UHGV virus genome: UHGV-1362809
Reading direction: 5' to 3' (one strand)
Source: a virus
DNA length: 64,000 nt
Shown here: piece by piece, positions 14,120 to 49,763 of the stretch
Layout: every line of letters begins with the position of its first letter
Numbering within the stretch: position 1 is the first letter of the stretch
The notes under the pieces: generated by a model
What the model saw: the letters and a program-made list of their open reading frames with translations, nothing else
Databases searched by the model: none
Told to the model about the DNA's origin: nothing
Made by a program: the position numbers and the translations under genes

Positions 14120-14362
14120 ATGACTCCTTATAAAGGTTGGTTAATAGCCCGAATGAGTGAGCAAGCTACAGGAGGCTTCATTGTACGTGGAGCCTCCCGA
14201 GGTTTGTTTGAGGGTAAAGTAGTGTCCATAGATGCAGACACTAAGGATATTAAAGTGGGTGATACAGTAGTGGCTCCGACGAATGAATGCTTTGAATATA
14301 GCCATCATTCGGAAGGTTTGTTGTACTTTGTACCTCTTAAGCATATCGTAGGTGTTGAATAA
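14120..14362 (+). CDS. groES: co-chaperonin GroES-like (80 aa)
   Basis: Size and pattern of GroES (mobile-loop-like TGGFIVRGASRG, KVGDTVV, C-terminal HIVGVE). Sits immediately upstream of the GroEL-like gene with a TAATG overlap. Confidence 0.7.
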   Translation: MTPYKGWLIARMSEQATGGFIVRGASRGLFEGKVVSIDADTKDIKVGDTVVAPTNECFEYSHHSEGLLYFVPLKHIVGVE

Positions 14363-15987
14363 TGTCACAGGTTATTTTAAGTGGAGACCAGAACAGAACT
14401 GAACTGTTGGAAGGTCTTAAAATTATGGCTGAAACAGTAGGTAGTACTTTGGGTCCTAAGGGTCTCAATGTTATTTTGCAAACTGAATTTGGTGCGCCCC
14501 ATATTACTAAGGACGGTGTTTCAGTCGCTCGTGAAATTAAACTCGATGGTGTGCAGGGATTAGGTGCATCATTGGTTAAGGAAGCTGCTAATAAGGCTGC
14601 TGTTGTCGGTGACGGTACGACTACAAGTTCTGTTTTGGCGTATGAAATTGCACGTCAAGGTATGACAAGCGCAGCCTATACCAACAAGTTTGGTATCAAA
14701 CGTGGTATTGAAGCAGCGTTAAAGGACATTGTGTCTAAACTTGAAGATAACACCATTCAAGTTAAAGATTCCAGCGACGTGTATAATATTGCGTTGGTAT
14801 CGGCTAATCATGATGAATCCATTGCTGAGCTATTTAAAAAGGCGTTTGAGTTGTCAGGCAAGGATGGTGTTATTGTTGTTCAAAAAACAAACAACTCTGA
14901 AACGACTTGCGAACGTGTGGAAGGTATGCAGTTTGACCGTGGATTTTTGAGGTCGATATTTATCAACGACTTTGAAAAACAGGAATGTCGCTTTGAACAC
15001 CCAAATATTGTGTTCGTGGATGGTAAACTCGACAGTCTGATTGAGCTTAGTACATTTTTTAATTCTAATGGAAAGGCTTTGGTTGAAAAACCATTGGTTA
15101 TTGTGGCGGAAGACTTCGATGCCCCTATCGTCGGCACCTTTGTTGAAAACCGTGTGCAGAGTGGTACGAGAGTATTGCTGGTTAAGGCTCCTGGATTTGG
15201 TGACCGTCGTAAAGACCACTTGGCTGACTTGTGTGCCTTTACTGGTGCAACCCTTATTTCTGAAGAGCAAGGTTTGTCGTTGGGTAAATGCACGATGGAA
15301 CACATGGGTCACTGCGATGTGTGGGTTTCGGACTTTGATAAGTCAACTATTCTTGGTGGTAAGTTTGATGAGACCCAGTTAGAAGATGCTAAAAAAGCTA
15401 TTCGTGGTCTTATTGAACGTGCTATTACCGACGTTGACCGCAATCGTTACAAAGAACGTTTGGCTCGTTTATCTGATGGTGTTGTTTCCATTTCGATTGG
15501 CGGTAATACCGATGTTGAAATCAAAGAGTTGTGCGACCGTATTGATGATGCCTTGTGTGCTGTAAAAGCTGCCGTCAAGGGTGGTTATACTGTAGGCGGC
15601 GGTATTGCACTTCTTAAAGCCTCGACTGAATGTGCTAATCCGTTTGACGTTGGCTCATCAGAACATATCGGCTACAACATTCTGCTCAACTGTTGTAAGG
15701 CCCCGTTGAAAAAGATTTGTGCTAATGTTGGTAATGACGATTTTACTCCCGACTATGTTGTTAGTACAGTGCTGCATAGCATAAAGAATGGACAGTCTAA
15801 TTTTGGGTTTGACGCAAAAGAGGAACACTTTGTTCAAAATATGCTAGACCATGGTATTATTGATCCAACGGACGTTGTTATCAGTAGTATCACCTGTGCA
15901 GTTTCCGCTTCTACTTTGTTGTTGAGTTCAGGATGCTCTGTACTACGACCCGAAGAAAAGAAGTGCGACTGTAAGTGTGGCAAGTAA
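14362..15987 (+). CDS. groEL: chaperonin GroEL-like (541 aa)
   Basis: Conserved Hsp60 blocks: GPKG(L)NV, AVVGDGTTTSSVLA (ATP-binding GDGTTT motif), equatorial and apical domain patterns. Confidence 0.9.
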   Translation: MSQVILSGDQNRTELLEGLKIMAETVGSTLGPKGLNVILQTEFGAPHITKDGVSVAREIKLDGVQGLGASLVKEAANKAAVVGDGTTTSSVLAYEIARQGMTSAAYTNKFGIKRGIEAALKDIVSKLEDNTIQVKDSSDVYNIALVSANHDESIAELFKKAFELSGKDGVIVVQKTNNSETTCERVEGMQFDRGFLRSIFINDFEKQECRFEHPNIVFVDGKLDSLIELSTFFNSNGKALVEKPLVIVAEDFDAPIVGTFVENRVQSGTRVLLVKAPGFGDRRKDHLADLCAFTGATLISEEQGLSLGKCTMEHMGHCDVWVSDFDKSTILGGKFDETQLEDAKKAIRGLIERAITDVDRNRYKERLARLSDGVVSISIGGNTDVEIKELCDRIDDALCAVKAAVKGGYTVGGGIALLKASTECANPFDVGSSEHIGYNILLNCCKAPLKKICANVGNDDFTPDYVVSTVLHSIKNGQSNFGFDAKEEHFVQNMLDHGIIDPTDVVISSITCAVSASTLLLSSGCSVLRPEEKKCDCKCGK

Positions 15988-16812: not shown

Positions 16813-16889
16813 CCCCTTGTAGCTTAGGCGGTTAAAGCAGTGGTCTTATAAACCAAAGAGCAGAGGTTCAAGTCCTCTCAAGGGGACCA
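16813..16889 (+). tRNA. tRNA with UAU anticodon (Ile-like), CCA encoded
   Basis: Manual cloverleaf: acceptor ccccttg/caagggg, D-arm gctt-aggcggtta-aagc, anticodon loop cttataa, T-arm agagg-ttcaagt-cctct, discriminator A plus cca. Confidence 0.6.
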
Positions 16890-16900
16890 ACAAACTTTAT

Positions 16901-16945
16901 GGAAACGTTGGTGTACAAAGTATAGGTTCGATTCCTATGGTTTCC
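16901..16945 (+). ncRNA. tRNA-like minihelix (acceptor-like stem plus T-arm, no D or anticodon arms), followed by T9 run
   Basis: ggaaac...tatagg-ttcgatt-cctat...gtttcc, then gttattgttttttttt; may act as a terminator or processing signal. Confidence 0.4.
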
Positions 16946-17358
16946 GTTATTGTTTTTTTTTAGTCTTGTTAGATACAATGCGAGTTTGGGCTCCTTTCAG
17001 TTGACGGAATGAGTGCTAGTATAATGTGGTTGCGATGCTGGTAAGACAGCGGTCCAGACTCTGTTTTCATTGTATAACGTTGTTTAATTATACCGTCCTC
17101 ATTCCGTCAGACCTGTAATGTAAGTACCTCCACGTGGTACAGGTTGGGTGCCTATTTTTAGGTAGCTAAAACTTACACACTCTTCTTTAAGTTGGTTAGA
17201 ACACCTGCTGGTTTACTTTGTGTTTGTCAGCAGGTTGACTGGTTGAAAGAACTGCCTCCTCGTGGCACCAGTCGGGTAGTGTGTTTTACACACGAGCTAA
17301 AAGTTCAAGCTTCAGACTGACGAGTCTGAATGATGATTGGATGATGAGTATATTATAG

Positions 17359-17441
17359 TGTTGCACGCCAAAGTGGAGAGTTGGCTGTTTCTAGATAAAC
17401 AGGGAAGCAATTCCTAATAGGTTCGATTCCTATTGCAACAT
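17359..17441 (+). ncRNA. type-II tRNA-like element, copy 1 (no encoded CCA, non-canonical anticodon loop)
   Basis: Acceptor tgttgca/tgcaaca, D-arm ccaa-agtggagag-ttgg, anticodon stem ctgttt/aaacag with 6-nt loop ctagat, variable hairpin ggaa-gcaa-ttcc, T-arm atagg-ttcgatt-cctat. Confidence 0.4.
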
Positions 17442-17447
17442 TATATC

Positions 17448-17528
17448 GAGTGCATTCCGTAGAGGTGAGACGGCTGTTTCTGAATAAACAGGGAAGCAAT
17501 TCCTAATAGGTTAAACCCTATCACACTC
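17448..17528 (+). ncRNA. type-II tRNA-like element, copy 2 (degenerate acceptor)
   Basis: Repeat of the previous element (ggctgtttctgaataaacagggaagcaattcctaatagg...), with only 5 of 7 acceptor pairs and a ttaaacc T-loop. Confidence 0.3.
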
Positions 17529-17805
17529 ACACCTTAGCTTCGAGGTCACCAAAGAGCAGTCGCACGACTTTAAACAGGGTATTTGCTTGATTCACCTAAG
17601 GAATGTAAATCAAGCGGTGGGTGTTTGACTACCATAAATCAACACAGCGTTTGTTGGCTATATATGCACGCACGTAGATAGTGATAAGATTACCGATGGG
17701 CAAGTGGTGATTGCTTTGTATGATTCGTAAATTCATACAGGGGTACTGACATACAGCCCCTTAACCGATGACATAGCAATATGATTGTCGTGTATGTCAA
17801 TTATT

Positions 17806-17839
17806 GGAGCGTTGGTAGAATGGTTATTACAACGGATTG
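17806..17839 (+). tRNA. tRNA-Ser 5' exon (acceptor, D-arm, 5' anticodon stem)
   Basis: ggagcgt (acceptor 5'), U8, 3-bp D-stem gta/tac with gaatggttat loop, acgga anticodon stem 5' strand. The complementary strands lie ~700 nt downstream. Confidence 0.6.
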
Positions 17840-18529
17840 AAAAGACTATGGGAAAATCTAAATTTATCTGTACTTATTGCGGTAAGGATTGTAAAAATTT
17901 AGGTGGACTTAATTGTCACGTCCCCTACTGTAAATTATAAAAATAGGGTGCCGAGACCCAGAAGCCCTTTAGCCCGCAGTAGAAAAGGTTGTATTCCTTG
18001 GAATAAGGGTTTAACAATGGCTACTTCTAAAATTGTTAAACGAGGGAGAGATAAACGGGTTAAACTTTATAGGGAAGGAATAATTGTTGGCTCTTTTACA
18101 GGTAGGCATCATACCGCCAAAACTAAAAGAAAAATGTCGAAAATTTGTAAACAAAGGCATTTAGATGGTTGGGATAATAAGGCAGGACGGTGTAAAAAGT
18201 ACAAGTATAAAAGTAAGTATGCTGGCTTAGTTACTTTAGACGGTACTTGGGAATTAGCTGTCGCACAATATTTAGACAAAAATGATATTCCTTGGAAGAG
18301 ACCTAATAAACGTTTTCCCTATAGATTTAGAGGAAAAAGTCGTACTTATAAACCCGACTTCTATTTAACTAAAAGGAGAACCTATATTGAAGTTAAAGGT
18401 TATCAAACATTAATGGATAGAGCTAAATGGAGAGATTTTCCTTATAGACTTCAAGTATGGAAAGCAGATAAACTTATTAAATTAGGCATTTTATAGTTGA
18501 ATGTTTAAATTGAAGTAGAGGATAGATTA
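17840..18529 (+). mobile_element. intervening sequence in tRNA-Ser: candidate group-I intron carrying an endonuclease ORF
   Basis: Separates complementary tRNA halves (7/7 acceptor pairs, 5/5 anticodon-stem pairs); contains the 197-aa nuclease ORF. Confidence 0.5.
17903..18496 (+). CDS. putative PD-(D/E)xK-type endonuclease within the tRNA intervening sequence (homing-endonuclease candidate)
   Basis: 197 aa with GTG start. C-terminal block RTYKPDFYL...RTYIEVKGY resembles a restriction-endonuclease-like fold (D...EVK). A 30-aa CxxC...CxxxxC ORF at 17848-17938 overlaps the 5' end in another frame, suggesting a frameshifted zinc-finger N-terminus. Confidence 0.5.
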   Translation: MDLIVTSPTVNYKNRVPRPRSPLARSRKGCIPWNKGLTMATSKIVKRGRDKRVKLYREGIIVGSFTGRHHTAKTKRKMSKICKQRHLDGWDNKAGRCKKYKYKSKYAGLVTLDGTWELAVAQYLDKNDIPWKRPNKRFPYRFRGKSRTYKPDFYLTKRRTYIEVKGYQTLMDRAKWRDFPYRLQVWKADKLIKLGIL

Positions 18530-18581
18530 CTAATCCGTCGTCCGAAAGGATGTGTGGGTTCGAGTCCTACACGCTCCGCCA
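18530..18581 (+). tRNA. tRNA-Ser 3' exon (3' anticodon stem, long variable arm, T-arm, acceptor 3', G73, CCA)
   Basis: tccgt; variable arm cgtccgaaaggatg; T-arm gtggg-ttcgagt-cctac; acgctcc pairs 7/7 with ggagcgt at 17806; discriminator G and CCA; matches tRNA-Ser architecture. Confidence 0.6.
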
Positions 18582-18914
18582 TATTACCTTTGGATTCATT
18601 TAAGGTCTGGTTATAGTTGGGTTGGTCCCCAACTTGGTACTAGATAAAGGCTGACATAAATCAGTATTGATATGTCCGTTGGTTGAAAGATTCCCGTTGT
18701 GATGACTGGAGTCGCCTTGATTGAGTCAATATATTGTGATTCTGTGTTTAAGGAATACAGCGTGGAAGCGTATGCCGCTATGCAACGACCTGTGGACAAC
18801 GAAAAGTGCCTTAAAGAGGATTAGTAAGTGCTGATGGTTTGGTAATTTGCACTTGGGAGTACTTTGTACGAGCAAACAACTGCCTATAAAAATTACCTGC
18901 AATTTTGACTATTT

Positions 18915-18991
18915 GGTGTCGTAGCTCAACGGGATAGAGCATAAGACTTCTAATCTTAAGGTTGGGCGTTCGAGTCGCCCCGACATCACCA
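18915..18991 (+). tRNA. tRNA-Arg (UCU), CCA encoded
   Basis: Acceptor ggtgtcg/cgacatc, D-arm gctc-aacgggata-gagc, anticodon stem taaga/tctta with loop cttctaa (UCU), T-arm gggcg-ttcgagt-cgccc, discriminator A plus cca. Confidence 0.8.
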
Positions 18992-19319
18992 AAAATTGGG
19001 TTGGCTACGTTAGCTCCCAAGTCATCAAAACGTGGCTATGTACTTGGTCAACGGGCATCAAGTAGGCTATGGTATGACGTGCCTTTACATACTCCTAATG
19101 CAATAATGGTGACTGTTGCGGGTCCGTCGTTAGGACCGTCTTCACAGGTAGCGCTGTAAACGACTATGGTAGAGAACTGCCCGTGATTTGACATCCAATA
19201 ATAGTACGTTAAGCTGTTAGTGCATTGTGTAATGCAGTGCAATAGTACAGGAGGGATGTTTTTTCTTTTCTTCCTCAGTTAGCTCTTTATAGTTTTCGGT
19301 TCCTGTGAAAAACTAATAT

Positions 19320-19402
19320 GCCCTTATGGTGAAATTGGTAGACACGCAAGATTAAGGTTCTTGTGCGAAAGCATCTCCGTTCGAGTCGGAGTAGGGGCAC
19401 CA
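19320..19402 (+). tRNA. type-II tRNA-Leu (anticodon loop ttaaggt read as AAG; possibly UAA), CCA encoded
   Basis: Acceptor gccctta/taggggc, 3-bp D-stem gtg/cac with 11-nt D-loop, anticodon stem caaga/tcttg, long variable arm gtgcgaaagcat, T-arm ctccg-ttcgagt-cggag, A73, cca. Confidence 0.6.
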
Positions 19403-32066: not shown

Positions 32067-32108
32067 TATATAAGCGGATATATACTTAGTACTCTGCATA
32101 CTTTCAAA

Positions 32109-32145
32109 TAGGAGTGTGACTTATGCTGCACTCCTATTTTTTTTG
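32109..32145 (+). terminator. rho-independent terminator
   Basis: ataggagtg...cactcctat followed by tttttttt. Confidence 0.7.
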
Positions 32146-32174
32146 TTGACAATGCCATTAAACTGTGTTATGTT
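32146..32174 (+). promoter_or_regulatory. sigma70-like promoter
   Basis: ttgaca, 17-nt spacer, tatgtt. Confidence 0.5.
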
Positions 32175-32208: not shown

Positions 32209-33411
32209 ATGGCTACGAATTTGAATGTTAATCAATGCACCTATGATGAAGCTCTTCAACTTGTTAATCATTGTATTGATTTAAAACTGGCGGTGTTGGT
32301 TCACGGTGCGCCCGGACTGGGTAAATCGACTATCCCCCGTGATATTGTTAAACAACGCAACGAGGACTTAGTTAAGTCTATTATCAAAGTTCGCAAAACT
32401 AAGGGGAAGTCTATTAAGGGCATCGAACAGTCTCCTCGGTACATTAGAGAGCACTGGGAAGTTATGGATATTCGTTTGGGGCAATACCCCGTCGAAGACG
32501 TTGCGGGTTTACCTGTGCCTATTGAAGTCGAAAAGGATGGAGTAAAATCCTACACTACTTTGAGATCACTACCCGACTTTTTACCCAGACAAGGTAATGG
32601 TATTTTGTTATTGGACGAAATTAACCAAGCTAATGCCATCGTTTTGGGTGCAGTGTTTCAACTTATCTTAGACCGTAAGATGACCAATGGTTATGACTTG
32701 CCCGATGGGTGGTCGATTGTTGCGGCTTGCAACGATGTGGAATATAACAGTGACGTGACAGAGTTCAATAGCCCTATCAATGACCGTTTCGTACACCTTT
32801 CTCTCAAACCCGACAAAAAACAGTGGTTGGAATGGGCGAGGAACAACGATATTCACGCCAATGTGATTGACTTTGTTTCACAGGCGTCTTCGGAAGACCT
32901 GTGTGGCGAACAGCACATGAATGACGACATCGTGTTTGCTACACCTCGAAGCTGGGCACGAGTTAGTGAGTTTGAAAAGCTTTTTGACGAAGGCAAGCTT
33001 TCAGTCGGTTTGTTGACCACTGCCTTAACAGGTATCGTTGGTACTTCTATCGCCACTCGTTATATGATGTTTAACAGCGGTAGACGTGACGGTAAGGTGT
33101 CGCTTTCGGTGTACAAGAAACTGTTGCTTACACCTAAAAATTCCGATATTGAAACATCAGTAGAACCTCGCAAATGTTTGGAATATATGGTTATGGCATT
33201 TCGTAAGTACACGGTTACCGATGAACAGGACGAGTTGGCAGTATACAACTTGACCCGTTGGGCATATAACAAATGTGGTATGCTGATGGAGGAATTGGAA
33301 AATATGTGGAGTCGTTTGTACACCGTTGAAGAAGACGGGTTTGTGAGTGATTCCGCATATATTAAGCAAAACTACCCCGATGCATGGGCGGTTGTAGCTC
33401 CCTTATTTTAA
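32209..33411 (+). CDS. MoxR-family AAA+ ATPase (400 aa)
   Basis: Walker A HGAPGLGKST, Walker B ILLLDEINQA, sensor/arginine regions, size typical of MoxR/CbbQ-type ATPases. Confidence 0.75.
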   Translation: MATNLNVNQCTYDEALQLVNHCIDLKLAVLVHGAPGLGKSTIPRDIVKQRNEDLVKSIIKVRKTKGKSIKGIEQSPRYIREHWEVMDIRLGQYPVEDVAGLPVPIEVEKDGVKSYTTLRSLPDFLPRQGNGILLLDEINQANAIVLGAVFQLILDRKMTNGYDLPDGWSIVAACNDVEYNSDVTEFNSPINDRFVHLSLKPDKKQWLEWARNNDIHANVIDFVSQASSEDLCGEQHMNDDIVFATPRSWARVSEFEKLFDEGKLSVGLLTTALTGIVGTSIATRYMMFNSGRRDGKVSLSVYKKLLLTPKNSDIETSVEPRKCLEYMVMAFRKYTVTDEQDELAVYNLTRWAYNKCGMLMEELENMWSRLYTVEEDGFVSDSAYIKQNYPDAWAVVAPLF

Positions 33412-33413
33412 GG

Positions 33414-33441
33414 TTGACTTTTACCTTGGACGTGGTATAAT
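33414..33441 (+). promoter_or_regulatory. sigma70-like promoter
   Basis: ttgact, 16-nt spacer, tataat. Confidence 0.5.
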
Positions 33442-33486
33442 AGGTATATACAGTTGAAAATGACTGGTAATGATTGCGAGGTAGCT

Positions 33487-35202
33487 ATGTATAAAGAACC
33501 TGTGATGGAATTGTTGAAAGATTGTTGTCGAAAAGACTTGAGTAGCTTACTCGGTTTTTTACGGGAACGTGTTGTAGACCAGCCCTTTTATGCGTGCGTG
33601 ACGAACGACAACGAGCTGGTACTGGGTAAACGGTTTTTTACTCTCAATCAAAAACAACGTACTTTTGCTATTTTACATGAGCTGTTGCATATTAGCTATG
33701 GACATTTCAAGTTTTACAAAGCGGGTGTAAATCACAAAGTTATGAATATAGCTAATGATGCTGTTATCAATGAAGCTATTTTGCTCGGTAAGATAGTACC
33801 TGTGGAATATGTGCAGGCGGTTGACGGTATTCCTTTGTTAAAGAATACGGTGTACCGAAATAAGGACAATTTGGTTGCCTTTTGTAAGAGCTATTATGGT
33901 AATTTAAGACAGGGAGACCTTACAGACGGGTGGTTTAAACGGTATCTTACTTCCTCTATTGTGTACAAGGTATTGATGGAATCCCCTGTACCAGAGGTTC
34001 CTAAGGTTAGTCCTCGTAAATCTAACAGCCAAAACAGTCAGGATACAAATCAAAATACTGGTTCTGACGATAACAATGTTAAACAGGAGAATAATGATGA
34101 ATACAAAGACGAACACAAAGCAAACGGCAAAGAAGATGATGCTGAAAATACAGGGGATGAAGAATCCACAGGGGAAAGTGGAGGTTCGGATTACAGCCCC
34201 GACCGAGATTATGACGAAACCGAGTGTGATGGACAAGATAGCCAAGATAGCCGAGATAGTGAAGCAGATATAGACCTCGATGATGAGTCAGACCAAGATG
34301 ACGAAACACAGTCTGATGATGGGTCAGATTCTGATGACGAGTTAGACCAAGACGATGAAGCACAATCGAACAACGAATCTCAAAATAGTGACACGCAGGG
34401 GGAACAACCAGACCCCCTGCAATATGAACCTGTAGCTTTTGACCTTGAGAGCTTGGGTCAAGAATACCAAGACGATTTTGACGGTGCGTCTAACCCGTTT
34501 GAAGTGTACAAAAACTGTGACGGACAGTTTGACAACAGCAATCAGATTTGTGGTGGTTTGAGTTCCGACGAAGCCTATGAAAACGGTTATAATGCGTATC
34601 TTGTTAAAGAGGCATTATCAAGAAATATCGACTGGAAATCGGTTGTAAAGACGTGTATTGCACAGTCAAAAAAGACTATAAAGCAATATGGTTTTAGTGT
34701 TCCTAATCGTCGGAACTACAAACTGCAGCAGGTTACCCAGTCTAAGGTACAGCTCCCCAATCAATGTAGCACTCAACCCGTTCCTACGGTGCATATTTAT
34801 GTGGATACCTCGACAAGTGTGTCTGACTACAGTTTGGCGTGTATGATATATGAGATTAAGGATATCTACAAATTTAGCGGGAACATTGATTTGACTGTAC
34901 GGTTCTTTACTGAATATGTGTACGGGGAAATGAATACCAAAGCCAAAACCTTCAACTATCGTAATATGCCTAAATTGAGGCGTGGTGGAACCAGTTTTAA
35001 CGCTATTTATGCGCAGTACTACAGTCCTAATGGAGAAGTACACCATAAAATTCCCGATGTTTGTGTGGTAATTACGGACGGTTATTGTTGGATTGATAAC
35101 CAATTCTTACCCCTTCCCCTTGGACGTAAGACTGTATGGGTAACTGATAGAACGATGCGTATGCCCAACCCCAAATGTATCAACGTAGTAAGACCTTTTT
35201 AA
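33487..35202 (+). CDS. MoxR partner protein: N-terminal HExxH metallopeptidase-like domain, acidic linker, C-terminal VWA-like domain
   Basis: ILHELLHISYGH (HExxH); ~150-aa D/E/S-rich linker; VHIYVDTSTSVSDYS (DxSxS MIDAS-like). Start chosen at ATG 33487 (gaggtagct RBS); alternatives are 33454 and 33460. Confidence 0.65.
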   Translation: MYKEPVMELLKDCCRKDLSSLLGFLRERVVDQPFYACVTNDNELVLGKRFFTLNQKQRTFAILHELLHISYGHFKFYKAGVNHKVMNIANDAVINEAILLGKIVPVEYVQAVDGIPLLKNTVYRNKDNLVAFCKSYYGNLRQGDLTDGWFKRYLTSSIVYKVLMESPVPEVPKVSPRKSNSQNSQDTNQNTGSDDNNVKQENNDEYKDEHKANGKEDDAENTGDEESTGESGGSDYSPDRDYDETECDGQDSQDSRDSEADIDLDDESDQDDETQSDDGSDSDDELDQDDEAQSNNESQNSDTQGEQPDPLQYEPVAFDLESLGQEYQDDFDGASNPFEVYKNCDGQFDNSNQICGGLSSDEAYENGYNAYLVKEALSRNIDWKSVVKTCIAQSKKTIKQYGFSVPNRRNYKLQQVTQSKVQLPNQCSTQPVPTVHIYVDTSTSVSDYSLACMIYEIKDIYKFSGNIDLTVRFFTEYVYGEMNTKAKTFNYRNMPKLRRGGTSFNAIYAQYYSPNGEVHHKIPDVCVVITDGYCWIDNQFLPLPLGRKTVWVTDRTMRMPNPKCINVVRPF

Positions 35203-35213
35203 GGAGACGAAGA

Positions 35214-35918
35214 ATGTATTGTATTGTTAATGCTCAAACCCCGATTTCAACGTGGGAAAACTTGGACGACGCCTTACTCAACATTATTGCCTTATCAAAG
35301 TTTACACAACCAGAGCAGTTTGACGATAGCTCTTGGAGTATTGTGGACAACTATTTTGCAGGGTGCAACTTGGACGAACTACCCAGAGTAACAATTTCTT
35401 CACAGGTAAAATGTTGTTCCCATTGTGGTCTTCTTTATCCTCTTAGTTGGTTTGTTGGGGCGCGTAAATCCCATCGTGTTACAAAGGAATGTAAAGCCTG
35501 TAGGCAAGACCGTGCTGTCAGACATGGTGGGTTTGCCAAATCAAAACCGCAAGGATGGAAACCATTTAGGATGATGACCATCGAGGAAAAACGACAGTAT
35601 TTTAAGGACAGAGGTTTTACTACCAAACGTCCTGGCAGGGATACGCCCAAAGTAGTGCAAATTAAAGAACCTTCTGCTATTGAAAAGCGATACATGGAAA
35701 ATGGTGTAAATATGTTTAGGTGGTCGCTGTGGTACTACGACCTAACTTCTACACCTGTTGTTGATAAGATGATATGGGATTTGGAGTGTCCGTCCAAGGT
35801 ACAGTGTAAACACGAAGGAGTAGTGGCTGATAAAGGGTGGCGTTTTATTGTGTATGCGACATCAAAGGAAAAGGCTATAGAAAAGGTGCAACAGTACATT
35901 TCTAAAATGGCTGCCTAA
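35214..35918 (+). CDS. hypothetical Cys-rich protein (234 aa)
   Basis: ATG 35214 after taaggagacgaaga; CCSHCG...CKACR zinc-ribbon-like. Confidence 0.55.
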   Translation: MYCIVNAQTPISTWENLDDALLNIIALSKFTQPEQFDDSSWSIVDNYFAGCNLDELPRVTISSQVKCCSHCGLLYPLSWFVGARKSHRVTKECKACRQDRAVRHGGFAKSKPQGWKPFRMMTIEEKRQYFKDRGFTTKRPGRDTPKVVQIKEPSAIEKRYMENGVNMFRWSLWYYDLTSTPVVDKMIWDLECPSKVQCKHEGVVADKGWRFIVYATSKEKAIEKVQQYISKMAA

Positions 35919-35941: not shown

Positions 35942-36292
35942 ATGAATTTAGATAAACCTCTTAATACCGTGATGGGTGTGCAAGTTCCCCGTGAACAACG
36001 GTACAAGAGATTGACAGACCCAAAGTCATTATTTACGCAACCTGCTGATATTCCATTTTCGTTTTATGACGGGGCTAATTGTATTGGTAGAAATGCGTAT
36101 GATGATAGTTGTCAGAACCACGTTCCTTCTATCAAAAATTTCTTAGACTATTTGTATGAATGTAAGCCTATAGGGTTTAAGGAATTTGAAAAAGACCATA
36201 TTTGGACTTACATAGATGTTGCTTTTGATTTTGGGGAGATTGTGGATGAGTACCTCAGATCTGTTAAAGGCACGGTCAAAAAACCAGTTTAA
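35942..36292 (+). CDS. hypothetical protein (116 aa)
   Basis: RBS caaggagaatgat-ATG. Confidence 0.5.
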   Translation: MNLDKPLNTVMGVQVPREQRYKRLTDPKSLFTQPADIPFSFYDGANCIGRNAYDDSCQNHVPSIKNFLDYLYECKPIGFKEFEKDHIWTYIDVAFDFGEIVDEYLRSVKGTVKKPV

Positions 36293-36875
36293 CTGGATGT
36301 GCAGAAAAATACCGAGACCTACTGATGAACAATACGAGGAATGGGTCAGGACTAAGGACTACGACGCTATTGTGTACCATAGTATACCTCTAATAGCTTA
36401 TATTTTGAGAATACACCTTGGTACATACGACGATTATTTAGACATTGTGCAGTCCTGTATAGTGCGTATACTAGAAGTATTGCCCAAATTTGATCTTCAA
36501 AAAGGGTGTAAATTGACTTCCTGGTTGTTTGTGATAATCAAGCATTTTGTGTACAACTATACTCGCTCTGCCGCATACCACGTATCTTTGAATAGTTTGA
36601 TAGGGGATAGCGACGATTGTGTGCAGGATTTTTTGATTGACTCATCTCCAACGCCGCACGAAACTGTACAACGCAGGAGTGATTCTCAACATTTTTATGC
36701 CAAGGTTTGCAGAATTCTTAAACCGTGCAACGAAAGAGACAGAAAAATGATGTTGGAGTACATATTTTCTGACCAGTCGATTACTCAAGCGGATATAGCT
36801 CGTAAGTATGGAGTGTCAAGACAGTACTTTTCACAGGTGTTTTTCAAGAGATTTAGCAATTACAAGAGAGGTTAA
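36246..36875 (+). CDS. sigma-70 family (ECF-like) RNA polymerase sigma factor
   Basis: Region-2-like CIVRILEVLPKFD...LTSWLFVIIKHFVYNY and region-4 HTH ITQADIARKYGVSRQYFSQVF. Start ambiguous (36246 overlaps upstream gene; alternative ATG 36297). Confidence 0.6.
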   Translation: MSTSDLLKARSKNQFNWMCRKIPRPTDEQYEEWVRTKDYDAIVYHSIPLIAYILRIHLGTYDDYLDIVQSCIVRILEVLPKFDLQKGCKLTSWLFVIIKHFVYNYTRSAAYHVSLNSLIGDSDDCVQDFLIDSSPTPHETVQRRSDSQHFYAKVCRILKPCNERDRKMMLEYIFSDQSITQADIARKYGVSRQYFSQVFFKRFSNYKRG

Positions 36876-43634: not shown

Positions 43635-44127
43635 GCTTACACTCGCTCCAAAATATAGGTGGAGGGTAGACGATACGCATACTGTTGCGGACTATAATAA
43701 TGATAAATTGTTTTCCACAAAGGGTGGCAGTGTAGTAGCAGTAGACGCCGACGGTGATATTATTTCACTATGTAAAAATGATGGAGACCTTTATTTTGGG
43801 TCTGATATACTAAAAGTTGCTGTTAAGAATGGAGGTAAAAAGTTAGACGCCTATGGTGATAGTTTGTACGAGTTTTATACAAAAAATGGATTTAGACCTA
43901 TTTCTTGGACACCTTTTAATAAAGAGTACGCTCCTCACGATTGGGGAGAAGATTTTGGGGACAATCATCATATAATTTTTTATGTATATGACCCTAATTA
44001 TATTTGCACTAAAACATACGAGGAATTTTTGCAAAGTGTTCCATGTTGTAAATATAATGATGGTTATGAAAAGGCACGAAAAATAAGGGATGAATATCTC
44101 TTAACTATGGAGAATAATAATGGCTAA
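43600..44127 (+). CDS. C-terminal part of the GNAT-like paralogue (175 aa), +1 frame relative to 43440
   Basis: Homologous to residues ~58-192 of the 27973 gene (KNGGKKLDAYGDSLYEFYTKNGF); no ATG (TTG at 43600); overlaps the upstream fragment by 35 nt. Looks like a frameshifted single gene. Confidence 0.45.
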   Translation: MLICINLLKVCKLTLAPKYRWRVDDTHTVADYNNDKLFSTKGGSVVAVDADGDIISLCKNDGDLYFGSDILKVAVKNGGKKLDAYGDSLYEFYTKNGFRPISWTPFNKEYAPHDWGEDFGDNHHIIFYVYDPNYICTKTYEEFLQSVPCCKYNDGYEKARKIRDEYLLTMENNNG

Positions 44128-47100
44128 GGATTATAATGCCAATTCAATCAAAGTACTGGACTACCCCGTCTGTTGCCACGTTCGCCCAGGAATGTATATC
44201 GGCGATACAACGGCTCCCAAGGGTGGATACTGCGATGGTGTGTTGCAGTGTGTAAAAGAAGCTCTTGATAATGCGGTTGACGAGGCTTCAAACAAGTATT
44301 CTAATGTTGTCGGTTTTGTGGCACAAAAGGACGGTTCCTTTGTAATTTATGATACGGGACGTGGTATTCCTGTTGAAGTACACCCCAAGTTTAAAAAAGA
44401 AAAGAAGTCAACTTTGGAGGTTATTTTTACCGTGTTACACGCAGGCGGTAAAATGGACTCTTCCAATTATGATAAATCGGTCGGTCGTAACGGTTTGGGT
44501 ATTTCTGTCACAAATGCTTTAAGCTCTTGGTTTCGAGTTACAACGTGCAGGAATCGTAAATGGTATACCCAGTTGTACCAAGAGGGGTATGTTAAGTCTA
44601 AAGTGCGGACTACCGTAAATCCTTCTAAAAGATTGGGTATAAAAGTTTCTAAAGGCACAGTAATTGAATTTTTACCCTTGTCCAAGGTGTTTAAAGATAG
44701 TATCAAGTGCGATTTGTCTGCTGTTTTTAAATGGATGAAGTTTAGTCAATACCTACTTCCTGGGATTACATTCAAGTACGAAAATCGTCTAAAAGGTAAA
44801 AGTAAGGAATTTTGTTCCACCAAGGGCATCGAGGGATACCTTAATAAACTGTGTAAGGATATCGGTTCTGAGGATATTACTGACACTTTTACGCTAAGAT
44901 ATCCTACTATTGACTTGTCTCTTAAATGGGTAAAAAATGACGACTGTATCATAGAATCCTATGTAAATGGAAGCCCTACTCCTAACGGAGGTACACACGT
45001 CAATGGGTTGAAAAAAGCTCTTACTGCTTGCATTTCTAACTATTCCAAACGGTCAGACTCCTTTAAGCCCGACGATTTGTTAGAGGGACTGGTGTGCGTT
45101 TTAAACTACAAAATGGACGAACCCTTGTTCGATAGTCAGACCAAGACAAAGTTGGTAAACAAAGGTACGGTGGATGATTTACCTGCTGAGATTGAAAAAG
45201 ATTTGACTAAGTGGGGCAGAGCTAATAAACAGGCATTATTGGAGATTATTCAACGTGCTAACGATATTAGGGGTGCAAAATTACAGTTTGAACAGGCTCG
45301 TAAGGCTATTGCAGCTGTTAAGGGTAAACGAGGTAAATCGTCGCTTCCCCCTTCTTCCAAATTTTCAGTTTCCACGACCAAAAATGCAAAGGATAGAGAA
45401 CTTTACATCGTGGAAGGTTTGAGTGCGGCAGGTACGGCTAAAGCAGCTAAGGATCACCATTATCAGGAGTCGTTGGCTCTTCGTGGTAAATTTCTTAATG
45501 CTGAAAAAACAACTGCAAGTCGTTTGTTTGAAAGTGATGAAGTGCTTAATATACTTAAAGCGATTGGGTATAATTCTGACGATAAATCTATAACCTATCG
45601 TGTCGGTAAAGTAATTATGTTGAGCGATGAGGATGATGATGGTTGCTTGGATGGTAACACCCGTATTTTGACTTTGGACGGTAAAAATCCAAAAATTAAA
45701 ACTTTGGTGAAGCAGTATGAAAAGGATAAGAACCCTATTGAAGTATATTCAGTAGATAAAGATGGTAATTTGGTAGTAGGAAAAGCTATTGAACCTCGTG
45801 TAACTAGAACTGTCAACAAAATGATTAAACTAACTTTTGACAACGGTTCTACGGTTTTGTGTACGCTTAACCATAAGTGGCTTATAAATAATCCTTCTAG
45901 GAAAGATGATAGAGTTATTTGGAAAGATGGTTTGGGGTATATACAAGCTAAGGACTTAAAGGAAACAGATAGTATTCGTAGCGTGTATCTTGAAAATAGA
46001 CATTCAGATGGGTCTTTTGTTTCTAATAGATATAAGTGTATTATAAATGCTTCCTCACAGGGAAAATACTGTGATAGAGATACTATGCCTGTGCATCAAT
46101 GGGTTAAATGTTGTGAGCAAAAAGGTTGGAAAAAATATAGAAAGGCTGGTAGGGGTATAGCTATACATCATATAGACGAAAACCCACAAAATAATTGCTC
46201 GAGTAATTTAAAGTATTTAACCCAAGCGGAGCATGGTAAGTTGCATATAAAGGAGCAGTGTGAAAAATATAATGGGTCTCAAAAACAGAAAGATGATTTA
46301 GCTAAAAACTGGGCTAACGGTGTTTATGATAAGATAAAGGATACTATTATTATATATAATAGATCAAAAAAACACAGAAAGCTGGTAAGTAAAATGAATG
46401 GAGATAAGAACCAATGCTTCAGACAGGCTATGGGAAAATTAAAGAACTATTATTTAACATTGAAGCATAACCACATAAAGGTAAATAGAGATAATTGGAA
46501 TCTCTATGTGGGTAAAAAGGGAATAGGTGGTGTTATGACTTGGGAGCTCTTTCATTCTAAAGGTATAAAGTTAAAAGATATTAAAACTTTTACTAATATG
46601 AGAGAAAGTGTCCGGTTGTACAAGTTATCTACTGTGAAAAACTGTTATCCTACTCAAAAACTTACAAAGTTTGAGTCTTTTTGTGACTATTTAAAGTCCA
46701 AGGGGTTGTCCGTTAATAAAGCTACATATAATAAGATAAGGATAAAGCTTATTCGTAAAAAGAAACTTTCTCAAGGGACGCCTAAATGGGAAACAATAAA
46801 GAACCATAAAATTGTTAAAAAGGAAGTTATTAATTCCGAACAGGAAGTTTATTGTATGACTGTTCCTGATTATGGTAACTTTATGGTGGCGGATAAGTAT
46901 GGTAACGGAATTGGTAGTAGCAATAGTCATATTGATACTTTGGTTTGTACATTGCTACAAAAGTTATGTCCTGATTTAATTGAAAAGGGTATGCTGTACA
47001 AGGTAAAGGCACCTTTATTCGTTGGGAGAACTGACTCTACCCAATATTATGGTGCTAGTATGAATGACCTAAAACGGCAGTATAAAGGAAAGTTTAAGTC

Positions 47101-47281
47101 TATTACCCGTATCAAAGGTTGGGGAGAAGCCAGTGCATCTTTGTTAAGAGAAGTTGCCTTCGACCCTGCTACCCGTAAACTAATTCAAATAAAACAGAGC
47201 GACAAAAAGGGTATACAACAGGCTAAGAAACTTTTGGGTGACGACATCGAAGCTCGTAGACAGTTGTTAAGTGAGGAATAA
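44120..47281 (+). CDS. type II DNA topoisomerase large subunit (GyrB-like ATPase plus Toprim; T4 gp39/gp60-like) interrupted by an intein
   Basis: GyrB blocks RPGMYIGDT, LDNAVDEA, LHAGGKMD, GRNGLGISV, ELYIVEGLSAAGTAK. DEDDDG | CLDGNTRIL... ...GIGSSN | SHIDTLVCTLL: the extein junction recreates the canonical DxDxDGSHI Toprim motif. The intein (45644-46924, 427 aa) contains an HNH motif (HHID...N...H). Confidence 0.85.
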   Translation: MAKDYNANSIKVLDYPVCCHVRPGMYIGDTTAPKGGYCDGVLQCVKEALDNAVDEASNKYSNVVGFVAQKDGSFVIYDTGRGIPVEVHPKFKKEKKSTLEVIFTVLHAGGKMDSSNYDKSVGRNGLGISVTNALSSWFRVTTCRNRKWYTQLYQEGYVKSKVRTTVNPSKRLGIKVSKGTVIEFLPLSKVFKDSIKCDLSAVFKWMKFSQYLLPGITFKYENRLKGKSKEFCSTKGIEGYLNKLCKDIGSEDITDTFTLRYPTIDLSLKWVKNDDCIIESYVNGSPTPNGGTHVNGLKKALTACISNYSKRSDSFKPDDLLEGLVCVLNYKMDEPLFDSQTKTKLVNKGTVDDLPAEIEKDLTKWGRANKQALLEIIQRANDIRGAKLQFEQARKAIAAVKGKRGKSSLPPSSKFSVSTTKNAKDRELYIVEGLSAAGTAKAAKDHHYQESLALRGKFLNAEKTTASRLFESDEVLNILKAIGYNSDDKSITYRVGKVIMLSDEDDDGCLDGNTRILTLDGKNPKIKTLVKQYEKDKNPIEVYSVDKDGNLVVGKAIEPRVTRTVNKMIKLTFDNGSTVLCTLNHKWLINNPSRKDDRVIWKDGLGYIQAKDLKETDSIRSVYLENRHSDGSFVSNRYKCIINASSQGKYCDRDTMPVHQWVKCCEQKGWKKYRKAGRGIAIHHIDENPQNNCSSNLKYLTQAEHGKLHIKEQCEKYNGSQKQKDDLAKNWANGVYDKIKDTIIIYNRSKKHRKLVSKMNGDKNQCFRQAMGKLKNYYLTLKHNHIKVNRDNWNLYVGKKGIGGVMTWELFHSKGIKLKDIKTFTNMRESVRLYKLSTVKNCYPTQKLTKFESFCDYLKSKGLSVNKATYNKIRIKLIRKKKLSQGTPKWETIKNHKIVKKEVINSEQEVYCMTVPDYGNFMVADKYGNGIGSSNSHIDTLVCTLLQKLCPDLIEKGMLYKVKAPLFVGRTDSTQYYGASMNDLKRQYKGKFKSITRIKGWGEASASLLREVAFDPATRKLIQIKQSDKKGIQQAKKLLGDDIEARRQLLSEE
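45644..46924 (+). mobile_element. intein 1 (Cys1 ... Asn, followed by Ser) with HNH homing-endonuclease domain, inside the topoisomerase ATPase/Toprim subunit
   Basis: In-frame 1281-nt insert beginning CLDGNTRILTLDG and ending GNGIGSSN before SHI; interrupts the conserved DxDxDGSHI motif. Confidence 0.75.
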
Positions 47282-47282
47282 A

Positions 47283-49763
47283 ATGAAAAAAGCACAGAAT
47301 GTTATCACAGATTATAATTCCTTTGTTAGAAGCAGTTATAAAAGGTATGCAATTAGTGTATTGAGCGACCGTGCGTTACCAGATTTTCGTGACGGTTTGA
47401 AGCCCGTTCAGAGAAAAATGTTGTGGACTGCCTATAAACTTGGTCTACATAATAACAAGGCTTTTACAAAATGTACGAATATTACTGGTAATTTGATGGC
47501 TCGTTTTTCCCCGCACTGTTTAGACGGTAATACTCAAATACCGTTATTAAACGGGGAAAAAATTAAATTAAAGGATATGGATTATAATAAAGTTTATGAT
47601 GTTCTTTCAGTTGACGAAAGCGGTAAAATAGTTGCTGCTAAGCTTTCAAAGGCTCGTAAAGGTAAAATTGTTGATAAAGAATATCATATCGTATTGTCCA
47701 ATGGTACAGTACTACCTTATTGTTCCAACAATCACCAGTTTTATATGGGTAATTCCACTTGGAAGAGGGCAGACGAAATACAGGTTGGAGATGAAGTGTA
47801 TGGAGGGACTTGGCTCTTTGAACAGGATTATTGTCCTATCGTAAGTTATTCTTCAAATAGTAAAAATACGAGAAGAACTGGAGTACATAGAATAGTTGAC
47901 TTCACTTACAGAGGTATTCTAAATAAAACTAATGAGAATACTGGGGATAAGTTACAAGTTCATCATAAGGACTTAAATACCCGTAATAATTTAATATCTA
48001 ACTTGAAAAGACTATCTTATAATGACCACATGAGATTACACAGTAGTTCTGGAGGTAATACTGTTAATGAAGTATTAAGGTCTTCAAAACGAGTAGTAAA
48101 AGCTAATAAGGAAAAAAATTCCTTTTTACTCTCAAGTTATAATAAATACAGATGGTTATATGTAGCCATTAAAGCAGTTAAAATTTTAAAGGAGAATAAA
48201 CTTCCCCTTACATGGAAAAACTATGATAGTTTAAGAACTAAGATACGAGGTTTGACCCTAAAGACCACGTTGCTTGAAAGGGGTTGGGATTTAAAAAGAC
48301 TATACAAAGAAAGAAATTGGACTTTTGATAAAACACCAATTCTTGGAAAAGTAACAAGAGCCTTATTAGGAAATAATAAACGACATCCCTATGAAGGAAA
48401 AGGCTACGGTTGGAGTAAAGGTTTAAGTCATAATTGGAATAACAGTAACATTAAACCAAAACTCTATGTAAAAGAAATAATAGTTAAAAAAGTAAAAAGA
48501 AAACAACTCTATGACTTTACTGTTAAAAAGCATCAAAATGTTTTGATTATTTTGGGAGATAACAAGACGTTTATTTGTGCCCATAATAGTGATGCCTATG
48601 GGGTGCTGGTTAATTTGACTGGTAATAGCGTAAAATTCAATCTTTTTGAAGGAAACGGGAACTTTGGTAACTACATTGACGAAGCTGCCGCACCCCGTTA
48701 TACGGAAGCCAAATTAAGTAAGTATAGCGACGACTTTTTGTTGAATCAGAACTATTTGGAAGTGTGTAAAATGCTTCCAAACTATTTGGACACCGAGGAA
48801 GAACCTATGTTGTTACCCTCCTTGTTGCCTGTGTTGTTTTTGATTGGATGTCAAGGTATTGCGGTAGGTTATAAAACTGAAATTCCAACCTTTACTCTTA
48901 AGTCTCTTATAAAAGTTGTCAAAAAAGGGTTGGTCAAAAAACTAAAAAGTAAGGATTTACTGTGTTTAGAGTTTGATGACATCTATAACGCTCAGTATGT
49001 TGGGACTGACCAGCAGTTGTTGGATTATTATACTTCTGGTAAGGCAGCCCTACCTTTTAATGTATTCTATAAATTGGATAGCACTAAATCATTTACTATC
49101 AATTCTATCATAGGAAATGGGGAAACTATGATTAACAAGATAGAATCTGACGATAGGGTTTATCAAGTAAATGATTTGACAAGTGGCAACGACATCAAAA
49201 TACAAGTTGTGTTGAAGCCTTCTATAGCCAGTAAGGACGTGAAAAATGTAGCTGCTGATATTGTGGCTAAGTTAAAAATAAATAGAATATTTATTACAAA
49301 CGTTATCAAAAGAGTTGTTACTGAACAAAAGGACGGAGACCATACGTTTTATGACGAGGGTGCGGTCTTAAAAGAGTCTAACCCAGTTGACTTGCTCAAC
49401 GAATGGATTAAATGGCGTGTTGAACTTGAAGTAAAGATGCTTAACAACCAAGTATCTAAGACAAATGACAAGGTAAACCAGTTGGAGTTTTATCGTTATT
49501 TAATTTCTAAATTAGATATTATCTTTAAAGTACTCAAATCGAAAACAAATGATTTGAAGGGAGCGATGAAGAAGGCTCTTAAGTGTACCGATGACCAAGC
49601 TCAAACGGTGTTAGATATGCCTGTTAGACGGCTGAGTAAATTGAGCGACGACGAGTTAAAGGGACAAATTAAGGACTTACAGCAGTATTCAAAGGACTGT
49701 AAAAAATGGTTGAAAAAACCACAAGATAAAATTTTGCAAGATTTGAACAAGGTAAAGGTGTGA
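47283..49763 (+). CDS. type II DNA topoisomerase DNA-cleavage subunit (GyrA-like; T4 gp52-like) interrupted by an intein
   Basis: RYAISVLSDRALPDFRDGLKPVQRKML (GyrA signature); ...MARFSPH | CLDGNTQIPL... ...FICAHN | SDAYGVLVNL...GNGNFG: extein junction recreates the HPHG(D)SAVY...GNFG block. ATG 47283 (gaggaataaa) preferred over 47271. Confidence 0.85.
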   Translation: MKKAQNVITDYNSFVRSSYKRYAISVLSDRALPDFRDGLKPVQRKMLWTAYKLGLHNNKAFTKCTNITGNLMARFSPHCLDGNTQIPLLNGEKIKLKDMDYNKVYDVLSVDESGKIVAAKLSKARKGKIVDKEYHIVLSNGTVLPYCSNNHQFYMGNSTWKRADEIQVGDEVYGGTWLFEQDYCPIVSYSSNSKNTRRTGVHRIVDFTYRGILNKTNENTGDKLQVHHKDLNTRNNLISNLKRLSYNDHMRLHSSSGGNTVNEVLRSSKRVVKANKEKNSFLLSSYNKYRWLYVAIKAVKILKENKLPLTWKNYDSLRTKIRGLTLKTTLLERGWDLKRLYKERNWTFDKTPILGKVTRALLGNNKRHPYEGKGYGWSKGLSHNWNNSNIKPKLYVKEIIVKKVKRKQLYDFTVKKHQNVLIILGDNKTFICAHNSDAYGVLVNLTGNSVKFNLFEGNGNFGNYIDEAAAPRYTEAKLSKYSDDFLLNQNYLEVCKMLPNYLDTEEEPMLLPSLLPVLFLIGCQGIAVGYKTEIPTFTLKSLIKVVKKGLVKKLKSKDLLCLEFDDIYNAQYVGTDQQLLDYYTSGKAALPFNVFYKLDSTKSFTINSIIGNGETMINKIESDDRVYQVNDLTSGNDIKIQVVLKPSIASKDVKNVAADIVAKLKINRIFITNVIKRVVTEQKDGDHTFYDEGAVLKESNPVDLLNEWIKWRVELEVKMLNNQVSKTNDKVNQLEFYRYLISKLDIIFKVLKSKTNDLKGAMKKALKCTDDQAQTVLDMPVRRLSKLSDDELKGQIKDLQQYSKDCKKWLKKPQDKILQDLNKVKV
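47517..48587 (+). mobile_element. intein 2 (Cys1 ... His-Asn, followed by Ser) with HNH-like motif, inside the GyrA-like subunit
   Basis: In-frame 1071-nt insert beginning CLDGNTQIPLLNG (same N-terminal block as intein 1) and ending ICAHN; contains HHKDLNTRNN...HMRLH. Confidence 0.7.

Follow-up and report, generated by a model that had tools for sequence, protein, structure and literature searches.

What would a large virulent phage gain from coupling a MoxR-class AAA+ ATPase to a protein that carries both a zinc-peptidase-like motif and a von Willebrand factor A (VWA) domain? The question is raised by two consecutive open reading frames (ORFs) on the plus strand of the virus genome UHGV-1362809, of which a stretch of 64,000 nucleotides (64 kb; hereafter the window) was analysed. 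The first ORF, at 32209-33411, encodes an ATPase of 400 amino acids (aa), and the second, at 33454-35202, encodes a partner protein of 582 aa if it is started at TTG. Judged by domain architecture and conserved residues, the two genes are a divergent addition to a module that has already been described, namely the gp24/gp25-type pair of phage N4 and the MoxR ATPase with metallopeptidase-vWA protein of jumbo phages. A preliminary description of the locus, in which particle maturation and host takeover were named as candidate roles, had interpreted it as a MoxR ATPase paired with an HExxH/VWA protein; the interpretation of the two proteins is upheld here, although the prior description of the module was not recognised in it.

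Few function-unknown gene pairs of large virulent phages are as widely conserved as the gp24/gp25-type module, with about 700-800 phage genomes in GenBank carrying it, and the partner family extends to tens of thousands of metagenomic relatives. Identification of the client protein would fill a gap in phage biology and would establish the first MoxR/VWA motor coupled to a protease. The window adds conserved host-type promoters of the pair inside a replication block, an acidic tether showing that this element can grow to ~140 residues in parallel to ChlD and Midasin, and the practical point that the widespread annotation of the partner family as an endonuclease is wrong; beyond these, it is mostly another divergent member of the module.

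The ATPase and its metallopeptidase-VWA partner

The first protein had been put forward as a MoxR ATPase of about 400 aa with Walker A and B motifs, and each of these features was recovered. Walker A reads GAPGLGKS at aa 33-40 (32305-32328), Walker B reads ILLLDE at aa 132-137 (32602-32619), and the H2-insert is represented by DVAGLP at aa 97-102. The Pfam AAA_5 cut-off is passed (25.1 bits against 22, 2e-5) over aa 131-194 only, with the AAA_3 and AAA matches below threshold, and PHROG 1297 ('ATPase') is matched at 2e-56. G33, G36, G38, K39, E137, N175, R193, and R247 do not vary in an alignment of 42 homologs, and D136 hardly does; from their positions, N175 would serve as sensor-1, and R193 and R247 as the arginine finger and the sensor-2 arginine. 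Because the Walker motifs and these three residues are invariant or nearly invariant among the 42 homologs, the enzyme looks catalytically competent. The AlphaFold2 model built on the same alignment reached a mean predicted local distance difference test (pLDDT) score of 83.9, and its top Foldseek matches were the NorQ structures 9qh4, 9qh7, and 9qh8 (E 1.6e-8 to 1e-7, template modelling score on the target 0.59-0.64), representing NorQ alone and complexed with the NorD VWA domain, followed by dynein AAA modules and the MoxR ATPase CbbQ2 (6l1q). The C-terminal ~110 aa form a helical extension common to the closest relatives only. A search of NCBIfam returned nothing meaningful.

Membership of the ATPase in the MoxR-vWA ternary conflict systems of Kaur et al. 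2020 (VMAP, iSTAND, FtsH, beta-propeller) was considered and rejected. The Pfam bpMoxR profile was matched at 11.3 bits against a cut-off of 27, and a search for the third component of such a system yielded no VMAP, STAND, FtsH, or propeller match, the neighbours being thymidylate kinase and small or unknown ORFs.

For the partner protein, the likely start is the ATG at 33487 (Met12 of the TTG-started ORF), which is preceded by a GAGG Shine-Dalgarno sequence and is the position at which all partner homologs begin, whereas the TTG at 33454 is without a ribosome-binding site. The gene is therefore best read as 33487-35202, encoding 571 aa, and residues are numbered here from that methionine. Its two ends were assigned to DUF2201_N (putative metallopeptidase; 51.1 bits, cut-off 23.2, 1.9e-13) and DUF2201 (VWA-like; 28.0 bits, cut-off 26.4, 2.5e-6), the very families that the preliminary description had expected from a Pfam search, and PHROG 1314 is matched at 4.8e-27. 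The zinc-peptidase-like motif HELLHISYGH, as had been claimed, lies in the N-terminal domain at 33676-33705 and is followed by NIANDAVIN at 33745-33771. Across eight sequences including N4 gp25, the residues H64, E65, H68, and H73 (HExxHxxxxH) as well as N87, A89, D91, I94, and N95 are invariant, distant homologs included. The MIDAS (metal ion-dependent adhesion site) of the C-terminal VWA domain, previously noted from its DTSTS letters, is complete, being spelt by VDTSTS (34801-34818), RGGTS (34981-34995), and ITDG (35071-35082); D440-x-S442-x-S444, G501-T502, and D531 are invariant among the close relatives, Pantoea phage G19, Serratia phage BF, and N4, and a C-terminal NPK...F is conserved. 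The region between linker and VWA domain holds an invariant W383 and P406-x-R408-R409 in the partner alignments, and in canonical proteins the DUF2201_N profile extends across both flanks of the linker.

Among 152 top profile matches, a sample biased to proteins resembling the query profile, HExxHxxxxH was present in 124 and DxSxS with GGT in 147, and the profile searches assigned the partner to no unrelated family devoid of MIDAS or HExxH conservation. The label 'HNH endonuclease', borne by PHROG 1314 and by the RefSeq entry for N4 gp25, was also tried and rejected, as neither the partner nor gp25 gave an HNH-type Pfam match even at relaxed E-values; on the PHROG 1314 family it appears to be an annotation error. 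In many N4-like phages, too, the DUF2201 metallopeptidase-VWA family is mislabelled as 'HNH endonuclease'; 'DNA repair ATPase' and 'anti-sigma factor' are other labels given to the family.

For the linker of the partner, a polyacidic, serine-containing stretch of ~150 aa had been proposed, and 137 aa with a net charge of -42 were measured (50 Asp/Glu, 8 Lys/Arg, and only 8 large hydrophobic residues). The AlphaFold2 pLDDT stays below 50 over aa 169-381, and weak tandem repeats of 9 and 18 nt are found in the underlying DNA at 34234-34358. In relatives of 62-29% identity, the linker measures 75, 110, and ~200 aa and its sequence is unalignable; canonical family members have a short Gly/Asp/Ser-rich stretch at this place, and several distant homologs possess long Q/S/D/E-rich linkers. 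Within the sample of 152, the spacing from HExxH to MIDAS is 376 here against a median of 286 (~88th percentile), and the most acidic 100-residue window carries a charge of -41 against a median of -18 (~10th percentile), several proteins reaching -45 to -53. On these comparisons of sequence, the linker is special in degree only, and long acidic linkers recur in the family.

Table 1. Features of the ATPase-partner locus in the window, with the basis or form of each
Feature	Position	Strand	Basis or form
Intrinsic terminator of the upstream unit	32106-32139	+	13-bp stem then T-run
Sigma70-type promoter 1, extended -10, for the ATPase gene	32146-32174	+	TTGACA-17-TGtTATGTT
MoxR-class AAA+ ATPase	32209-33411	+	400 aa; Pfam AAA_5, PHROG 1297, AlphaFold2/Foldseek
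Sigma70-type promoter 2, extended -10, in the 75-nt intergenic gap	33414-33441	+	TTGACT-16-TGgTATAAT
Putative zincin-like metallopeptidase domain	33487-34005	+	aa 1-173; Pfam DUF2201_N
Disordered polyacidic Ser/Asn/Gln-rich linker	34006-34416	+	aa 174-310; composition, pLDDT
Conserved middle region	34417-34776	+	aa 311-430; matches C-terminal part of DUF2201_N profile
VWA-like domain, complete MIDAS	34777-35202	+	C-terminal; Pfam DUF2201

Distribution, named relatives, and a working model

The gp24/gp25 pair of N4, with homologs throughout the Schitoviridae, shows the same gene order and Pfam architecture as the window pair, and its HExxHxxxxH and MIDAS residues are invariant with those described above; gp25 (L008 1165-2307) matches DUF2201_N at 3e-87 and DUF2201 at 1e-46, and the N4 genes likewise stand among those of nucleotide metabolism. 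The two partners are nevertheless only ~21% identical, gp25 being a protein of 380 aa with a short linker, and the ~110-aa C-terminal extension of the window ATPase is additional to N4 gp24. Homologs of gp24 and gp25 are listed as function unknown in N4-like roseophages (PMC2784036) and in Delftia phage RG-2014 (PMC5735904). In the group 2.2 jumbo phages, a MoxR ATPase and a metallopeptidase-vWA protein were described as a chaperone-cochaperone pair by Iyer, Anantharaman, Krishnan, Burroughs & Aravind 2021 (PMC7824862); the architecture is the same, and the example checked, BF_0212/BF_0213 of Serratia phage BF, has the same Pfam domains. What sets the window apart from that group is a phage without a close relative in GenBank and a context that suits a virion-assembly role less.

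The two genes travel together across lineages. In tblastn searches of GenBank phage records, 790 carried the ATPase type and 689 the gp25 type with nearly identical taxon breakdowns, the latter distribution having been mapped with canonical N4 gp25 as the query; the window partner itself found one weak match only among the GenBank phages, in Sinorhizobium phage Phosso. In an exhaustive profile search, the partner family came to 29,244 cluster representatives, of which 6,675 were matched at E <= 1e-30. A genome-contig scan with N4 gp25 returned near-N4 sequences only and is uninformative on cellular homologs. The ATPase gene directly adjoins that of the partner in Pantoea phage G19, Serratia phage BF, N4, and three relatives of the window (L005, L006, and L007); on two GroEL-encoding contigs of ~200 kb (L009 and L011), the pairing is looser, the genes lying near each other. 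In phage PA5oct, a 'putative homing endonuclease' downstream of the ATPase was examined as the partner and discarded, for it proved to be a protein resembling restriction endonucleases; the PA5oct-type partner sits elsewhere, ~3 kb downstream in phage MIJ3. The CRISPRi-ART paper, consulted for fitness data on N4 gp24 and gp25, held nothing relevant.

Among characterised systems, NorQ/NorD and CbbQ/CbbO provide the best structural matches of the ATPase, yet at 13-14% sequence identity. NorD-type partners share the layout in which a linker runs from an N-terminal domain to a MIDAS-VWA domain at the C-terminus, although NorD and CbbO are without an HExxH peptidase domain and their clients are respiratory or carbon-fixation enzymes. 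For NorQ/NorD, finger-in-pore docking has been reported, together with an ATP-driven rotation that stretches the linker joining the VWA domain to the N-terminal domain (PMC13036017, PMC9976466). An AAA+ motor combined with a MIDAS-VWA domain behind a long acidic linker, as found here, is also the arrangement of Mg-chelatase ChlI/ChlD (BchI/BchD) and of Midasin/Rea1, but the N-terminal domain of ChlD is AAA-like rather than a peptidase, and Midasin is a single polypeptide. Midasin has an acidic region rich in Asp and Glu. In ChlD the acidic linker precedes the VWA/MIDAS domain (PMC6604950), and the Midasin VWA domain is stated to dock at the ring centre in the passage of PMC13036017 that cites this result. 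Membership of the window pair in the chelatases themselves (BchI/BchD/BchH; CobS/CobT/CobN) was rejected, the N-terminal domain of the partner being DUF2201_N and not AAA or CobT. No ORF of BchH or CobN size, as would befit a ChlH/CobN-like third subunit, was found in the 64-kb window, where the largest ORFs are topoisomerase subunits, and the match of the ATPase to the CobS-type PHROG 249 is marginal (E 0.0057).

By analogy with these systems, we think it rather probable that the window pair operates as an N4 gp24/gp25-type machine for docking, client capture, remodelling, and cleavage. The ATPase presumably forms a hexameric ring, and the partner would be its cofactor, in which the acidic tether joins the zincin-like head to the VWA domain. 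On the pattern of NorQ/NorD, CbbQ/CbbO, and Midasin, the VWA domain would dock on the pore face of the ring, and its Mg2+-loaded MIDAS could seize a carboxylate of the client protein. An ATP-driven rotation or pulling, passed on through the acidic tether, might then remodel the client and expose it to the tethered metallopeptidase, by which it would be cleaved.

Several points weigh against such a cleaving machine. Metal insertion or enzyme activation, and not protein cleavage, is what most characterised MoxR/VWA pairs carry out, so that the HExxH domain could instead serve to handle metal or to bind. The domain assignments include two marginal scores, those for AAA_5 in the ATPase and DUF2201 in the partner being barely above their cut-offs. 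With no more than nine sequences in the alignment supplied, word-indexed homolog searches having given 3 and then 9 proteins, the AlphaFold2 model of the partner came out poor (pLDDT 48). That model has an N-terminal beta-sheet followed by the HExxH helix, a secondary structure compatible with a zincin fold, and a C-terminal domain of alternating beta and alpha elements; its fold matches are weak and, given the quality of the model, indicative only, comprising integrin I, NorD VWA, and MDN1/Rea1 MIDAS domains for the VWA part and a single peptidase, abylysin (E 0.017). Sequence searches of the PDB with the partner found no solved structure, the matches being only low-complexity ones to the acidic linker. 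To our knowledge, experimental data exist for none of the DUF2201 proteins. Furthermore, the two genes do not make up a strict operon, a terminator lying between them in relatives. Lastly, Iyer et al. prefer a role in virion assembly (PMC7824862).

The first of these points can be extended into an explanation of its own, in which the pair is an enzyme-activating chaperone for cofactor or metal insertion without proteolysis, like NorQD, CbbQO, CoxDE, and the chelatases, with HExxH handling the metal and a phage enzyme, for example a nearby one of nucleotide metabolism, as the client. It draws on the fact that the nearest structural relatives of the ATPase, NorQ and CbbQ2, are metal-insertion or activase MoxRs, and on recurrent neighbours such as thymidylate kinase (window and L005-L007), dCTP deaminase (N4), thymidylate synthase (BF), and dUTPase (RG-2014), although this neighbourhood may only mirror the composition of the middle-gene block and no candidate metalloenzyme client is consistently adjacent. 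Since the catalytic signature of zincins is an HExxH whose Glu is invariant, and the Pfam class is that of a putative metallopeptidase, we regard pure activase function as highly doubtful and retain remodelling with cleavage as the preferred reading.

Promoters, genomic setting, and the probable site of action

The preliminary description credited the pair with a terminator and promoter of its own (32109-32174) and with an internal promoter at 33414. All of these signals are present, but the terminator belongs to the upstream unit. Its hairpin (-16 kcal/mol, z = -4.66) is folded as well by none of 200 shuffled sequences and has an equivalent in each of L005, L006, and L007. As this hairpin closes the unit before the ATPase gene, and no terminator was found after the partner gene in the scan, the pair is not an insulated cassette.

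A plain sigma70 consensus scan of the window performed at chance level (22 found, 22.6 expected). The narrower pattern TTGAC-N13-16-TGnTAnnnT, a class to which both promoters of the pair belong, gave 16 matches, all on the plus strand, against 1.03 expected, and the second promoter of the pair agrees with the consensus at 11 of 12 positions. In the three relatives, the -35 and extended -10 elements of both promoters are kept as the flanks diverge (ATPase identity 82% to 49%), the conserved parts of promoter 1 being the -35 GTTGAC and TGnTAT. The relatives carry a GC-rich intrinsic terminator between the genes (L005 4650-4680, L006 11206-11232, L007 5995-6015); in the corresponding gap of the window (33412-33486), the promoter is kept and the intergenic hairpin is absent. 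The two genes may thus be dosed independently.

The 16 extended -10 promoters are spread over 1602-53941, among them those at 1602, 3932, 5646, 7083, 9536, 16102, 16181, 23389, 29793, 39740, 41685, and 42368, and 15 of the 16 fall between 1.6 and 42.4 kb, a distribution that suggests an early/middle region from which host RNA polymerase transcribes. The gene for a phage sigma factor is located at 36216-36875. N4 differs in this respect, as its middle genes are transcribed by the phage RNA polymerase II whereas the promoters of the window look host sigma70-type.

Every gene of the window lies on one strand, and the gene content (NAD-dependent ligase, GroEL, a QueE-like enzyme, four tRNAs, thymidylate kinase, a sigma factor, SbcD, and a split topoisomerase II) looks like that of part of a large virulent phage, consistent with the earlier epithet 'lytic-type'. 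A megablast of the window against GenBank phages found no match, leaving it without a close nucleotide relative there. The pair itself resides in a probable early/middle block of genes for DNA and nucleotide metabolism, including those for thymidylate kinase, the sigma factor, SbcD, and topoisomerase II. Given the host-type sigma70 promoters within this block, the probable place of action of the module is the infected cell, at a time before replication or in the course of it, and not only late head maturation.

The position of the pair bears directly on the published proposal that it is a chaperone-protease for virion assembly, in which the pair would help structural proteins to assemble and the peptidase domain would process them, as put forward by Iyer et al. 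for the group 2.2 jumbo phages with an analogy to an archaeal virus (PMC7824862). The analogue is the p618 (MoxR)/p892 (VWA) couple of Acidianus two-tailed virus, likened here by description and the sole virus-encoded MoxR-VWA couple with experimental evidence, which, in the passages of PMC7824862 and PMC7159879 that treat it, concerns tail development; the virus is however archaeal, p892 is without a peptidase domain, and the couple acts extracellularly in the virion. Other phages lend the proposal further weight: the pair of Serratia phage BF lies directly 3' of four genes annotated 'structural protein', the PA5oct ATPase bears an 'ESI-MS/MS' (electrospray ionisation tandem mass spectrometry) note, and genes for virion proteins are near the gp24/gp25 homologs of roseophage RPP1 (PMC4193335). 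Against this stand the surroundings in the window, where genes of nucleotide metabolism and replication surround the pair, sigma70-type promoters stand before it, and no capsid, portal, or prohead-protease gene was identified adjoining it, and those in N4, where the neighbours include dCTP deaminase. In addition, gp24 and gp25 of N4 are middle genes, and their transcripts are middle rather than late (PMC4193335). An assembly role is in our view somewhat unlikely.

The same promoters are also compatible with a protease for host takeover or counter-defence, which would capture and cleave a host protein, such as a nucleoid, transcription, or defence protein, and whose acidic tether, resembling nucleic acid, might lure basic DNA-binding targets as a decoy. 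Besides transcription from host-type promoters of presumed early/middle use, this explanation can call upon the extreme charge of the linker (-42 in 137 aa), the rapid evolution of its length and sequence, as expected of conflict interfaces, and a weak Lar-like match in the ORF next door (35175-35918), with a Lar_restr_allev gene farther downstream in L007. The folded domains, by contrast, are strongly conserved across very different hosts and ~29,000 representatives, which suggests a conserved client and not an arms-race target; a PADLOC run returned no match to any defence model, and a known defence system was rejected on this basis. Housekeeping AAA+ partners such as ChlD also have acidic linkers (PMC6604950), so that the decoy idea is unneeded. 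Takeover is for these reasons considered unlikely. More doubtful again is its fullest version, an early/middle host-directed machine of this phage clade to 'capture, unfold and cut', with the hyper-acidic and fast-evolving tether as a nucleic-acid mimic recruiting basic host DNA-binding or defence proteins that the MIDAS and AAA+ ring would deliver to the zincin; if true, such a machine would represent a novel kind of device for takeover or counter-defence, common to N4-like, rV5-like, and jumbo phages. The reading of a docking, remodelling, and cleaving module remains the one that we prefer.

Neighbouring genes

The ORF immediately downstream (35175-35918, plus strand) shares 28 nt with the 3' end of the partner gene, which it overlaps, and contains CxxC...CxxC motifs; its match to Lar-like restriction alleviation proteins is weak (PHROG 5558, 5e-4) and it has no Pfam match. 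The Lar_restr_allev gene of L007 is likewise situated downstream of the pair.

A full-length GroEL is encoded at 14362-15987 on the plus strand (PHROG 5725, 4.9e-114), and Cpn60 is also found a few kb from the ATPase/DUF2201 pair on the ~200-kb contigs of distant relatives (L009 10169-11821). Upstream of GroEL, a QueE-like radical SAM gene occupies 12405-13250 (plus strand), and the close relative L006 carries a PTPS (QueD-like) gene at 59-517; taken together, the two genes hint that this group of phages has a pathway for 7-deazaguanine modification of DNA. The tRNA cluster at 16813-19402 (plus strand) includes Ile-TAT, Arg-TCT, and Leu-AAG, and ARAGORN calls an odd tRNA-like gene with a 2-nt 'anticodon' at 17358-17442. 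The topoisomerase II genes, at 44120-47281 (GyrB-like, 1053 aa) and 47271-49763 (GyrA/ParC-like, 830 aa), both on the plus strand, each contain an in-frame intein, with Pfam Intein_splicing matched over aa 520-923 of the GyrB-like and aa 91-426 of the GyrA/ParC-like protein and an HNH homing-endonuclease insert in each.

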